A DNA stretch of 64,000 nucleotides from Eubacteriales bacterium (lineage in GTDB: Bacteria > Bacillota > Clostridia > Oscillospirales > CAG-272): contig JAZQWO010000054.1 in NCBI GenBank assembly GCA_045632405.1, positions 2,291 to 66,290 of the forward strand. The letters run 5' to 3'. The notes under the pieces are model-generated. The model was given only the letters and a program-made list of their open reading frames with translations. It did not search any database and was not told the DNA's origin. The position numbers and the translations under genes are program-made. Shown here one piece after another: positions 16,671 through 57,489 of this stretch. How positions within the stretch are numbered: the first letter of the stretch is position 1; each line of letters opens with the position of its first letter.

Positions 16671-16850
16671 AAAAAATCCACCTGTGCTTCAGGTGGCGAA
16701 AAACGGCAGGGAGTGTCCATAAAACACGCCCAAAAGCCAACAACCTCTTCCATCCGGACTATCACCGTCGGTCTCGGAGTTGCACCGAGTCAACGCGCAC
16801 GCGCTTGCGGACTATACCGCCGATAAGGAATTACACCTATCCCTGAAGTA
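16671..16850 (-). promoter_or_regulatory. FMN riboswitch (RFN element) with terminator expression platform
   Basis: The minus strand reads CTTCAGGGATAGGTGTAATTCCTTATCGGCGGTATAGTCCGCAAGC...CTCGGTGCAACTCCGAGACCGACGGTGATAGTCCGGATGGAAGAG. It is followed by GCCACCTGAAGCACAGGTGG-TTTTTT. Confidence 0.9.
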
Positions 16851-16874
16851 TTACTATTTTATTCGTTTTTTAAT

Positions 16875-16970: not shown

Positions 16971-17990
16971 ATGGAAAAGAAGCATATTTGTATTTTACAC
17001 ACAGGCGGCACTATCGGTATGGTGCGCAGCCAGCAGGGCTATTTGCCAAAAAGCGGTTATTTGGAAACTGCGCTTTCTGCTATTCCCGACCTTATGGCAG
17101 AAAGCATGCCCCATTATACATTTGTTGAAATGAATCCCTTGCTTGACTCCTCAGATATGGCGGTTAACGACTGGAACAAGATAGGCGAGGAAATTGCGAA
17201 AAGATATGAGGACTTTGACGGCTTTGTTGTTCTGCACGGAACGGACACTATGGCATATACTGCCGCCGCACTTTCCTTTATGCTAAAAAACCTTAACAAG
17301 CCTGTTGTTTTGACAGGCTCGCAAATTCCACTTTGCGAGGTTAGAAGCGACGGTGTGGATAACATTGTCACCTCATTGATAATTGCGGGGGACGCCCGTG
17401 TGCGCGAGGTTTGCCTTTACTTCGGTGGTAGGCTTTTGCGTGGCAACAGAGCAACAAAAATGTCGGCTGACGGACTTTTGGCATTTGATTCTCCAAACTG
17501 TCCGCGTCTTGCAGAAGCAGGCATCAGCATAAGGTACTTGCCTGTGCCACCCCCACCAAAGTGTGACGAGGGAGCGCCCCTTACCCTTTGCAAATTTGCA
17601 GATGTGCCAATCGGCGTTTTGAAGGTTTTCCCCGGTATCAGCTTCCCTATTTTCGATAAATTGATGACGGAAAAGCTACGCGGCATCGTGCTTGAAACCT
17701 TTGGCGCAGGCAACATTCCGGGCGAGGGCGATAGCCTTTTGCCTATTATCAGAAAGGCATTTAATGCAGGAAGTGTTGTGGCGGTTTGCTCACAATGCCC
17801 ACAGGGCACGGTTTCCTTGGGCACTTATGCCACAAGCTCCCCCCTCAAGGATGCAGGTGCTGTCAGTGGCTTTGATATGACAACGGAAGCCGCAGTTGCC
17901 AAGCTCTACTACCTCTTTAGCCAAGGCTTTTCCAAGGAAGAAATTAAACGCTTGATGGAAGAGAACCTACGCGGAGAACTAACAAAGTAA
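16971..17990 (+). CDS. ansA: type I L-asparaginase
   Basis: Motifs ILHTGGTIGM and HGTDTMAYTAAALS. Confidence 0.9.
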   Translation: MEKKHICILHTGGTIGMVRSQQGYLPKSGYLETALSAIPDLMAESMPHYTFVEMNPLLDSSDMAVNDWNKIGEEIAKRYEDFDGFVVLHGTDTMAYTAAALSFMLKNLNKPVVLTGSQIPLCEVRSDGVDNIVTSLIIAGDARVREVCLYFGGRLLRGNRATKMSADGLLAFDSPNCPRLAEAGISIRYLPVPPPPKCDEGAPLTLCKFADVPIGVLKVFPGISFPIFDKLMTEKLRGIVLETFGAGNIPGEGDSLLPIIRKAFNAGSVVAVCSQCPQGTVSLGTYATSSPLKDAGAVSGFDMTTEAAVAKLYYLFSQGFSKEEIKRLMEENLRGELTK

Positions 17991-18137
17991 ATTTCACATA
18001 CCGTTGATTTACCTTTACTACCCTTCCACCGCTTTTGTTGCTTCATGCTAATTTACTGTGAGTGCGTTGCGGTCCCCCTCCCCTCACAAGTGGAGGCAAA
18101 AACGGAAGAAAATTTGCGCGGAGAACTAACAAAATAA
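17991..18137 (+). repeat. family-2 intergenic element (core about 18021-18096) plus a second, diverged copy of the last 33 nt of ansA (18105-18137)
   Basis: The signature CCCTTCCACCGC...CGTTGCGGTCCCCCTCCC-loop-GGAGGC is homologous to 32961-33046. The sequence 17958-17990 recurs at 18105-18137 with 5 mismatches. Confidence 0.75.
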
Positions 18138-18143
18138 AAGTAT

Positions 18144-18171
18144 AAAAGTCCGACACGTGTCGGACTTTTTT
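18144..18171. terminator. bidirectional rho-independent terminator
   Basis: AAAA-GTCCGACAC-GTGTCGGAC-TTTTTT. Confidence 0.8.
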
Positions 18172-18370
18172 AATCTGGAACATATTCCATTATATCTTCG
18201 ATTTTACACTCTAAGGCAGAGCAAAGCTTGTTTAGCGTTTTGGTTTCAATATTGTCATTCGCTTTTAGCCTACGTATAGTTTTGCTATCAATTCCGCATT
18301 CCTCACGTAGCTTATAGGTTGAAACACCCTTTTCCTTCATTAAATCCCACAATTTATCAAAAGCTATCAT
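18170..18370 (-). CDS. small XRE-family helix-turn-helix protein
   Basis: 66 aa. ...VSTYKLREECGIDSKTIRRLKANDNIETKTLNKLCSALECKIEDIMEY is a typical Cro/C1 HTH. Confidence 0.8.
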   Translation of the reverse strand: MIAFDKLWDLMKEKGVSTYKLREECGIDSKTIRRLKANDNIETKTLNKLCSALECKIEDIMEYVPD

Positions 18371-31587: not shown

Positions 31588-32958
31588 ATGGCAACAGTAA
31601 AAAAAGAGCTTACCAAGCTGACCCCTCAGCTTATGTCTTATGTAGATAAATGCTCAATGAACACTACTATTGACCCTGAGCTATACACAAAATTCAATGT
31701 AAAGAGAGGCTTGCGTGACGTTGACGGTAAGGGCGTTGTGGCAGGTCTTACGGAAATTTCCGAAATCAACGCATTTTTAAATTGCGGTGAGAGCAAAATC
31801 CCCTGTGACGGTGAGCTTTACTACCGTGGCGTTAACATACAGGAGCTTGTTGGCGGCTTTTTGGCTGACGACCGCTTTGGATTTGAGGAAGCTATCTATC
31901 TTTTGCTTTTTGGTGCTTTGCCAACAAAGGAAGAGCTTTCTGACTTTGACAGCCTTTTGAAAAGATACAGGAGCTTGCCAAAGAATTTTGTCCGCGACGT
32001 GCTTATGAAGGCAAGCGGCAAGGACATGATGAACATTTTGGCGCGCAGTGTGCTCACCCTTTATGCCTTTGACGACAAGGCGGATGACACATCTATCCCT
32101 AACGTTTTGCGCCAATCATTGCAGCTTATTTCAGAATTACCGCTTTTAGCGGTTTACGCTTACAAGTGCTATGAATATTACGAAAAGAAAAAGAGCCTTG
32201 TTATTCACCAGCCTAAAAACAATTTATCTTTGGCGGAAAATATTCTTTATATGCTTCGTGATGACGGAAAATTCACTCCATTGGAAGCAAAAATCCTTGA
32301 CCTTGCTCTCGTTTTACACGCTGAGCACGGCGGCGGTAACAACTCCACATTTACAACACACGTTGTCACATCCTCAGGCACTGATACATATTCGGTAATT
32401 GCCGCATCCTTAGGCTCCTTGAAGGGTCCGCGCCACGGTGGTGCAAACGCCAAGGTTGTGGAAATGATTGACAACATAAAGAAGAATGTTAAAAACTACG
32501 GCGACGAGGAGGAAATCAAGAGCTACCTCACCAAAATACTTAACAAAGAGGTGTTTGACGGCAAGGGCTTGATTTACGGTATGGGTCACGCGGTTTACTC
32601 TCTTTCCGACCCACGTGCTATGATTTTCCGTGACTTTGTGGAAAAGCTCTCACGTGAAAAGGGCAAGGAAAAGGACTATCTCCTTTGCTCAACCATTGAG
32701 CGCGTTGCTCCTGCAGTTATTGCCAAGGAAAGAAAGATTTACAAGGGCGTTAGCGCCAACATTGACTTTTACAGTGGCTTTATTTACAATATGCTTGGCA
32801 TCCCTCGCGAGCTGTTCACCCCTATATTTGCAATTTCACGTATTGCAGGCTGGAGCGCACACCGTATGGAAGAATTGTTGCTTAACGGAAAGATTATCCG
32901 TCCTGCATATCAAAATATTTCACCAAGAGCGCCCTATACACCGCTTGAAGAAAGATAA
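31588..32958 (+). CDS. citrate synthase
   Basis: I chose the start MATVKKELT at 31588, behind a GGAAGGAG RBS. Motifs LVLHAEHGGGNNSTF, GPRHGGA and YGMGHAVY. Confidence 0.9.
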   Translation: MATVKKELTKLTPQLMSYVDKCSMNTTIDPELYTKFNVKRGLRDVDGKGVVAGLTEISEINAFLNCGESKIPCDGELYYRGVNIQELVGGFLADDRFGFEEAIYLLLFGALPTKEELSDFDSLLKRYRSLPKNFVRDVLMKASGKDMMNILARSVLTLYAFDDKADDTSIPNVLRQSLQLISELPLLAVYAYKCYEYYEKKKSLVIHQPKNNLSLAENILYMLRDDGKFTPLEAKILDLALVLHAEHGGGNNSTFTTHVVTSSGTDTYSVIAASLGSLKGPRHGGANAKVVEMIDNIKKNVKNYGDEEEIKSYLTKILNKEVFDGKGLIYGMGHAVYSLSDPRAMIFRDFVEKLSREKGKEKDYLLCSTIERVAPAVIAKERKIYKGVSANIDFYSGFIYNMLGIPRELFTPIFAISRIAGWSAHRMEELLLNGKIIRPAYQNISPRAPYTPLEER

Positions 32959-33107
32959 TACACACTCCCTCCACCGCGGATTTTGTTTTAGCTGTATTAC
33001 TTGCTCATACGTTGCGGTCCCCCTCCCTCGAAGAAGGAGGCTGGGTGTCCTGCATATCAAAATATTTCACCAAGAGCGCCCTATACACCGCTTGAAGAAA
33101 GATAATA
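32900..33107 (+). repeat. 61-nt perfect direct repeat of the citrate synthase 3' end (32900-32960 and 33047-33107) flanking an 86-nt family-2 element (32961-33046)
   Basis: Both copies were compared base by base. The element carries CCCTCCACCGCGG...CGTTGCGGTCCCCCTCCCTCGAAGAAGGAGGC. Confidence 0.85.
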
Positions 33108-38706: not shown

Positions 38707-39092
38707 CGTGGCGCTATTAGCGTGATACTCTTAACGGAGTATCACGCCGTCAAATCCGTCTTCGACGGGTGAAATCCACCTACGGTGGATGAAATCGCTT
38801 TCGCGATGAAATCCTGCTTCGCAGGGTTGTTTTTAGACGGATTTGATTTCATCCAAGGCAACGCTTTGGATTTCATCTGAACGAAGTGAAGATTTCATCG
38901 TTGCTGTGCAACGATTTCATTAAACCAACAGAAAAAGAGGAAACTTTTCGGCTATTAACCGATTTGTTTCCTCTTTCTGTTTGTATAGGGGTTTGGGCTT
39001 AGCCCATTTGCGTTTGACTAGTCAAATGCGATGCTCGCACTTAGCGGTGTTTTCAAATTCTCCGCTAAGAATATCACACATTTAGCGCCACG
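38707..39092 (+). mobile_element. 356-nt TIR-bounded non-coding structured element (38722-39077) sitting between the arms of the feo terminator stem (38707-38716 / 39083-39092)
   Basis: TIRs are GTGATACTCTTAACGGAG and CTCCGCTAAGAATATCAC. Ladder C (GATGAAATC / GATTTCAT) spans 38749-38920. The outer stem CGTGGCGCTA/TAGCGCCACG has a T7 run on the minus strand. An inverted homologous copy lies at 42887-43242. Confidence 0.7.
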
Positions 39093-42872: not shown

Positions 42873-43256
42873 ACGGCAGATATAGGGTGATGTCCTTAGC
42901 GGAGAATTATTGCTTTGACAAAAGTGCAAGCATCGCATTTGACTGGTCAAACGCAATATGGGCTAAGCCCAAACCCTTATTACAAGCAGAAAGAGAGAAC
43001 AAATTGGGAAAACCGAAATGTCCTCTCTTTTTCTGTTGGATAAATGAAATCGTGGTTGAACCACGATGAAATCTTCGCACGGCTCAGATGAAATCCAAGG
43101 TCAAGACCTTGGATGAAATCAAATCCGTCCGAGCTTAACCCTGCGAAGCAGGATTTCACCGCGAAGCGATTTCATCCACCATAGGTGGATTTCACCCGTC
43201 GAAGACGGATTTGACTGCGTGATACTCCGTTAAGAGTATCACTCTATCTCTGCCGT
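42873..43256 (-). mobile_element. inverted second copy of the 356-nt structured element (42887-43242) between the arms of the EF-G-like gene terminator stem (42873-42885 / 43244-43256)
   Basis: The reverse complement aligns over its full length with 38722-39077 and has the same length. The first 26 nt are identical. The outer stem ACGGCAGATATAG/CTATCTCTGCCGT differs from the stem at the other copy. Confidence 0.7.
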
Positions 43257-57367: not shown

Positions 57368-57489
57368 GCCTTCTCCAGCGGAGAAGGGGGACCAAGCTTG
57401 CTTGGTGGATGAGGAGAGCATTTTTAGATTGCACTATTTTGTCCTCCTCATCCGTCTGCTTCGCATCCACCTTCCCCGCTGGGGAAGGC
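57368..57489 (-). repeat. family-2 intergenic element, reverse orientation, larger variant
   Basis: The reverse complement ends ...CTTGGTCCCCCTTCTCC-GCT-GGAGAAGGC. Hairpins are CCTTCTCC-AGC-GGAGAAGG, GGATGAGGAG...CTCCTCATCC, TGC-TTC-GCA and CCTTCCCC-GCT-GGGGAAGG. Confidence 0.65.

Follow-up and report, generated by a model that had tools for sequence, protein, structure and literature searches.

A small non-coding repeat behind ansA and other gene ends in a genus of Clostridia: long target duplications and a predominantly silent divergence between the duplicated ends

Why should the end of a housekeeping gene be present twice, the second time in other codons for the same amino acids, with a short stretch of non-coding DNA between the two versions? 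The question is raised by the asparaginase gene ansA in a window of 64,000 nucleotides from an Eubacteriales bacterium of the order Oscillospirales (assembly GCA_045632405.1, contig JAZQWO010000054.1, positions 2,291 to 66,290 of the forward strand; all coordinates below are those of this window). A companion case exists at the citrate synthase gene of the same window, with the same distance between the two versions. Two matters have to be understood: what lies between the gene ends, and why they differ as they do.

Anatomy of the ansA locus

The ansA reading frame, taken from the list of open reading frames and identified as a type I asparaginase by its Pfam domains PF00710 and PF17763, extends from 16971 to 17990 on the forward strand. 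Its last eleven codons, namely ten sense codons and the TAA stop at 17958-17990, make up the expressed gene end, henceforth copy 1. An orphan gene end, copy 2, is found on the same strand at 18105-18137, contiguous with the native terminator, and the similarity between the two spans 17957-17991 on the copy 1 side. As the initial annotation had stated, they differ by five nucleotides distributed over four codons, all differences being synonymous, and both read EENLRGELTK followed by a stop. The repeat is far above chance: the direct repeat scores 20, against 8 for the next-best repeat within the same 420-nt stretch.

The DNA that separates the copies, all of it on the forward strand, is composite. 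It begins with a spacer, from the stop codon to the first conserved box (17991-18019). The first 12 nt or so of this spacer are unique, while its last 18 nt or so resemble the AT-rich 5' extension of subfamily copies, as seen in a comparison with the loci C24, C18, L155, L127 and L168; the spacer has no similarity with the sequence located 3' of copy 2 (7 matches out of 29). Next comes box A (18020-18032), consisting of a 5' word and TCCACCGC, which is invariant in an alignment of 44 copies of the family. A variable, T-rich middle part of 36 nt follows (18033-18068), the hallmark of what will be termed the long form, and after it box B, which starts with GCGGTCCCCCT and is again invariant, together with a 3' hairpin ending in GGAGGC (18069-18097), the arms of which change in concert between subfamilies. 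A ragged linker of 7 nt (18098-18104), of variable length (3-9 nt) at other loci, leads to copy 2. The initial annotation had described a conserved core of about 76 nt; the two boxes and the hairpin do answer to this description, whereas the 36-nt middle is poorly conserved. Past copy 2, a terminator scan finds a bidirectional intrinsic terminator (18144-18172) that is common to ansA and to a convergent gene of the minus strand coding for a protein with the Pfam domain HTH_26 (18170-18370). The best explanation of this arrangement is that positions 18003-18104, approximately, are one copy of a small non-coding, non-autonomous repeat located between the ansA stop codon and its native terminator.

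At the citrate synthase gene (32900-33107, forward strand) the same construction is made of a 61-nt copy 1, an 86-nt element and an identical 61-nt copy 2. The offset of 147 nt previously noticed at both genes (here 32900 versus 33047) is correct. In the neighbourhood of ansA, an FMN riboswitch (98.7 bits) lies on the minus strand at 16738-16854, directly upstream of the gene on the opposite strand, and farther away the window contains Gut-1 RNA motifs at 38747-38817 and 43148-43217.

Which of the two gene ends is the resident one can be asked of the relatives, since orthologues of ansA are present in 11 genomes of the genus. In the two that are closest at this locus, G003 and G015, the site is empty: they possess the stop codon, a terminator and the convergent gene seen in the window, but lack the element. 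This terminator is homologous to the one that stands behind copy 2, and the same relation is observed at a trxB-like locus. By their terminators, the element-free relatives thus match the copy 2 side, so that copy 2 and its downstream sequence represent the ancestral arrangement. The initial annotation had suggested comparing the ansA 3' ends of close relatives with each of the two copies. In this comparison the codons are divided (2:2 at ansA, 12 versus 13 at the trxB-like locus), an uninformative polarisation because the species of the genus are about 20% apart and saturated at silent sites. A sliding window of identity along ansA is likewise uninformative as to a recombination tract, all relatives being approximately 80% identical. 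At a LuxR-type gene of genome G014, the closest element-free relative matches copy 2 at six of the seven sites that differ.

The repeat family and its variable period

The genome that holds the window, G000 (2.26 Mb in 66 contigs, 97.7% complete, 0.25% contamination), carries at least 15 copies of the family. When it is searched as a whole with the conserved box, eight copies come out in a common order: copy 1 and a short stretch that varies, then the element and copy 2, and lastly native downstream sequence. As the initial annotation had it, the ansA and citrate synthase elements belong to a single family. The offsets are 146, 151, 163, 146, 147, 147 and 181 nt, one more copy having a decayed copy 2. 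Within the genus the element is found in 36 of 50 genomes, and its long form is confined to this genus among 200 genomes representing 97 genera of the bacterial family. About 50 long-form loci of the genus, drawn from more than 15 independent assemblies, were retrieved for comparison. They repeat the succession of copy 1, element and copy 2, as does nearly every long-form copy.

A pattern of this kind might be produced by computers rather than by cells, if two strains contributing to a metagenome-assembled genome had been stitched together around a repeat. Most of the genomes used here are indeed metagenome-assembled, and the period is near common read and k-mer lengths. However, the layout recurs at all these loci in independent assemblies with differing periods, the copies differ at the level of species divergence, the sequences that follow the two stops are unrelated, and the contamination of G000 is as low as stated above; an artefact is hardly credible.

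Looser motifs reveal short forms of the element, where 2-5 nt stand in place of the 36-nt middle, most of them without duplication. One short form, C24, displays a duplication of 71 nt that covers the stop codon and the entire terminator. In the window itself, a short-form variant on the minus strand (57369-57414) has ACCAAGC/GCTTGGT as its first stem, instead of ACCGC/GCGGT, and this stem is supported because the change is compensatory; it covaries again (ACCAC/GTGGT) at loci behind a gene ending in AASFLGRQFEG. Single-sequence folds of the element are no better than those of shuffled sequence, and no Rfam family matches it at gathering or at permissive thresholds. A role of the middle part as a guide towards the target was considered and rejected, as it has no complementarity to the element's own target. 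Between ansA of G000 and the orthologous insertion of another species (L155) the middle parts are unrelated, with 11 identical positions out of 36.

Several small-repeat families abound in G000, where no larger repeat unit is found around the short forms. At L183:434-480 (G014:C31), copy 1 and the element are separated by a small hairpin repeat, present also at G014 C43 and C24. This spacer might belong to the element, as an extension of its 5' part, or be a second repeat nested there; since it is another repeat of G014, it is ruled out as a foreign terminator. At L243 (G064:C68), a variant of the element with the same 5' word and 3' hairpin and a different interior duplicates the end of a LuxR-type gene, and a partial further unit follows.

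The coincidence of the 147-nt offsets had led to the idea of an exact period that would recur at further loci. The survey gives it no support. Over 36 loci the period varies between 124 and 194 nt with a median of 151, and 19 of them fall within 145-151 with no fixed value; in sharing 147 nt, ansA and citrate synthase stand at the mode of the periods and do not follow a rule. The mode exists because a target duplication of about 55 nt (the most frequent length, in a range of 26-100 nt) adds to roughly 90-95 nt of element. Those short elements that do have a duplication show periods of 98-138 nt, with duplicated segments of 45-70 nt, and therefore the constant is the duplication, and not a unit of 147 nt. 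Elements occupy the short gaps found behind genes, so that the duplication includes the last codons of the gene.

Units may also be found in series. At L013, L014 and L015 (in G018), and at L164, L168, L173, L184 and L196, two to four units, each made of a gene end and an element, follow one another in tandem with a period between 98 and 160 nt; such arrays, present in several genomes, show that units recombine or duplicate. In the L196 array, 8 of 12 codons distinguish the first copy from the two behind it; every one of these differences is silent, TCA/AGC and AGA/CGT exchanges being among them.

The junctions invite a comparison with retroelements. At long-form loci, copy 2 always begins 18-22 nt past box B, which corresponds to the 3' end of the element followed by a ragged linker of 3-9 nt, and the 5' extension varies in length from one locus to another. 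In descriptive terms, a fixed 3' end, a variable 5' truncation and variable target duplications are shared with non-LTR and SINE-like retroelements. Furthermore, some of the duplications stop exactly at the U-tract of the terminator, that is, at an RNA 3' end, and the orientation of the element is biased, co-directional with the upstream gene. Primary insertion by reverse transcription would concern only the origin of new copies, and it is compatible with the explanation that we favour below. Yet many other duplications end at or near the stop codon, which is not an RNA end, and the reverse transcriptase domain RVT_1, present in nine of the 50 genomes of the genus, has no match in the element-rich G000, G014, G018, G051 and G056. 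We see this route as improbable, without thinking it far-fetched.

Silent divergence between the two gene ends

In the coding parts of the copy pairs, 36 loci taken together, 111 of the codons that differ are synonymous and 43 are non-synonymous, when random single-base changes are expected to be synonymous in 21.6% of cases (binomial P ~1e-40). Third positions account for 124 of the 189 differing bases at the same loci. The synonymous-only difference first noticed at ansA is exact for that gene; for the family as a whole it is a bias, and not an absolute one. Some of the synonymous swaps require several steps (AGA/CGT, TCA/AGC, CGG/AGA, TTA/CTC), and one stop codon may also be exchanged for another. 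Straight after the stop, the similarity between the copies falls to the random level (7/29, 6/30, 13/47). In three families where a gene start is duplicated, with the element in opposite orientation, the ribosome-binding site and the ATG are kept in both copies, and the spacer between them is scrambled.

The differences are not spread evenly. They cluster beside long identical tracts (Fisher combined p = 3e-5, 23 loci), in two kinds of pattern: identical, then diverged toward the stop, at C54:66908, L195, L193 and L175; or diverged, identical and diverged again, at pyrI and ansA. Crossovers inside the two copies would yield exactly such patterns.

Several species carry the element behind the same genes: ansA, citrate synthase, the trxB-like gene, pyrI and seven others that are named by their C-terminal peptides. 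At these recurrent gene ends, the junction codon and the linker are often unchanged between species; the trxB-like junction of G000 differs from that of G051. For ansA, a metagenome scan gave one useful contig, L155, which comes from another species (93% protein identity). Its insertion is at the same codon and has the same period, and only silent changes distinguish the orphan copies of L155 and G000; in G018 the ansA element is of the short form, where G000 has the long one. The AASFLGRQFEG gene end (L256, L257-L260) carries the element in five related species, three times in the short form and twice with a long middle. With both forms at a fixed site, it would seem that one derives from the other, the long from the short or vice versa. 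At this gene, the orphan copies retain their frame and stop in G014, G053 and G001, with synonymous differences only between G014 and G053. The expressed copies of different species are more alike than the orphan copies, and this fits a shared incoming cassette facing resident orphan ends. Some orphan copies use codons (AGC, CGT) that are absent from the functional alleles of 24 sampled species.

The initial annotation had left two possibilities side by side: either one copy had been imported from a diverged lineage, or all changes had accumulated in the expressed copy. The latter supposes that insertion duplicated the target, that the copies were identical at that time, and that they diverged in place, only silent changes surviving in the copy that is expressed. 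Identical or near-identical copies do exist as a minority, at citrate synthase (61/61), C24, L127 and L023, and their identity includes non-coding sequence and terminators; duplication at insertion is therefore real. But if the divergence had been generated on the spot, the unconstrained copy should change faster, and mostly in a non-synonymous way: some 36% synonymous changes would be expected, when 72% are observed, and about 90% in the well-kept loci. Orphan copies differ only silently from species to species, at ansA (G000 versus L155) as well as at the AASFLGRQFEG gene, and the non-coding similarity is gone abruptly at the stop, yet the sequence behind copy 2 can be aligned with that of other species. 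Divergence in place is accordingly an unlikely account, and the idea that every change belongs to the expressed copy is disfavoured with it.

Orphan copies that differ only silently between species, in two orthologous sets, would be compatible as well with selection acting directly on the orphan copy. It might be translated, through read-through, ribosome hopping or the removal of one period from the messenger, or it might become the gene end again after loss of the element by recombination between the copies. The preservation of frame and stop across species in these two sets goes in that direction. So does the ansA frame of G000, which, as first reported, is uninterrupted over the 38 codons that separate its two stops; in the orthologous insertion of the other species, however, a stop closes this frame, so that the openness is not conserved. 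Only nine of the 36 periods are multiples of three, and with respect to the codons of copy 2 the element occurs evenly in all three phases (14:9:13). Translation or read-through through the element is rejected on these three grounds, and the caution expressed at the outset against programmed read-through was well founded. No consistent start codon is present at the junctions across loci, and nothing in these sequences would point to either splicing or hopping. Loss through recombination between copies is plausible, in that arrays exist, but selection after loss cannot act while a lineage still holds the element. Finally, a minority of orphan copies are decaying (L194, 5:8; L066, 2:6; C18; and G064, where two replacements are seen). 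We regard a selected orphan copy as rather unlikely.

The explanation that we favour, with a confidence hardly above even, is that of a non-autonomous repeat that makes long target duplications, the gene-end copies being alleles that homologous recombination has brought together from diverged lineages. In the case of ansA, the resident gene end would be the downstream copy (18105-18137) with the terminator. The upstream expressed copy and the element would have come from a diverged lineage and been attached to this end through homologous recombination, crossovers occurring either where the copies are coding and conserved or in the element, which is conserved too. Each copy would then have been shaped by selection as a real gene end, and this would be the reason why the differences are only synonymous, why both stops are kept and why similarity ends at the stop. 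Import from a diverged lineage, the other possibility retained initially, thus becomes the best-supported reading after the survey of the genus. The anatomy, the synonymous bias of the family, the mosaics, the recurrence at the same genes and the lack of read-through are shown; recombination between lineages is inferred to be the cause, in preference to selection acting on the orphan copy. Homologous recombination at 20% divergence is normally rare, and this counts against the explanation, as do the AGC and CGT codons of some orphan copies mentioned above.

One can go a step further and imagine a self-propagating 'knock-in cassette'. With the gene on its left and the duplicated conserved end on its right acting as homology arms, the element of about 100 nt might home into the same gene of other species by means of host recombination and without any enzyme of its own, leaving the recipient's gene end behind as an orphan. 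We put this forward tentatively, and doubt it more than we trust it. If true, a tiny non-coding repeat of gut Clostridia would combine two unusual properties: it would duplicate some 55 nt of its target, and it would spread between diverged species together with a replacement gene end. Selfish DNA would have a new way to move without its own enzyme, and recombination between species would have a marker. On the practical side, gene callers and analyses of selection are liable to be misled by orphan gene ends, and the conserved element is a likely hotspot of recombination and of assembly breaks.

Enzymes, known mobile elements and distant relatives

Within its draft completeness of 97.7%, G000 has no match to RVT_1, to Y1_Tnp (PF01797), to DDE_Tnp_1 or to the IS1634 transposase (NF033559). 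The latter exceeds its cut-off in one of the 50 genomes of the genus, which is not an element-rich one, and none of the four tracks the element. This lack of a co-occurring enzyme fits a spread by host recombination.

In IS1634 and in IS1549, a member of the IS1634 family, direct repeats of variable length, from 8 to 514 bp, have been described with no mechanism proposed (PMC2266710), and this is the only published precedent that we found for long, variable target duplications. The present element shares this feature, with its 26-100 nt; by contrast, members of the IS1634 family are 1.5-2 kb long and encode a DDE transposase, whereas it measures about 45-100 nt, is non-coding and shows no matching terminal inverted repeats. 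The ends of the 44 aligned copies have none, the only pairings being internal (ACCGC/GCGGT) and in the 3' hairpin. MITEs, which are also short, non-autonomous, multi-copy and flanked by direct repeats, differ by a duplication that is short and fixed, when it is long and variable here. No parent insertion sequence, or kilobase-scale element with the same two ends, is present in G000.

With REP, BIME and REPIN sequences (associated with RAYT, Y1), the family has in common that it is small, extragenic, hairpin-forming, multi-copy and located behind genes, and its short forms and alphaproteobacterial relatives are, like them, mostly without duplication. However, REPs make no target duplication, while the long form nearly always has one of about 55 nt, and G000 gives no match to Y1_Tnp. 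Diversity-generating retroelements, too, display two copies of a gene 3' end a short distance apart. Here the differences are not specific to adenine (G/A, C/T and A/G at silent sites in ansA), the targets are housekeeping genes, and RVT_1 is missing from G000.

Genomic islands and prophages that integrate at the 3' ends of genes (those for tRNA, tmRNA and some proteins) provide another parallel: the incoming DNA supplies the expressed end, the resident end is displaced downstream, and the two ends differ by neutral or silent changes. One could therefore think of a miniature site-specific integrative element, mobilised in trans by a tyrosine or serine integrase, whose attachment site includes a gene end that replaces that of the host, as islands do at tRNA genes. 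The step pattern that islands leave, with identical left parts, diverged right parts and unrelated sequences after the stop, is indeed seen. But islands depend on a site-specific integrase, have one attachment site only and bring kilobases of cargo, while here dozens of gene ends are concerned by less than 110 nt of DNA with no linked integrase seen. Some 30 target genes each have a different repeat, so that there is no common attachment core, and the phage and plasmid collections contain no copy of the element. A device of this sort is very unlikely; a classical, site-specific version of the integrating element evoked in the initial annotation does not fit, because every locus carries a different repeat.

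Homing of introns and inteins with co-conversion also resembles what is proposed here: the insertion enters empty alleles through recombinational repair, flanks of the donor are carried along, and the flanks become mosaic. The difference is that homing depends on a site-specific endonuclease and makes no target duplication, while in the present case the duplicated gene end would itself take the part of a homology arm.

The family is undescribed. The same box architecture is present in many copies in Alphaproteobacteria, namely in Brevundimonas, Caulobacter, Asticcacaulis, Rhizomicrobium and Sphingomonas. An arrangement of a Shine-Dalgarno sequence plus a start codon located 3' of these relatives was considered and set aside, as it holds in 11 of 95 cases only. 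In the alphaproteobacterial form, a C-rich word and CCACCGC are followed by a loop or a hairpin, then by GCGGTCCCCCTCC and by a hairpin with GGAGG at its end; there is no flanking duplication. A small repeat is in this way common to two phyla, in the present genus of Clostridia and in Alphaproteobacteria.
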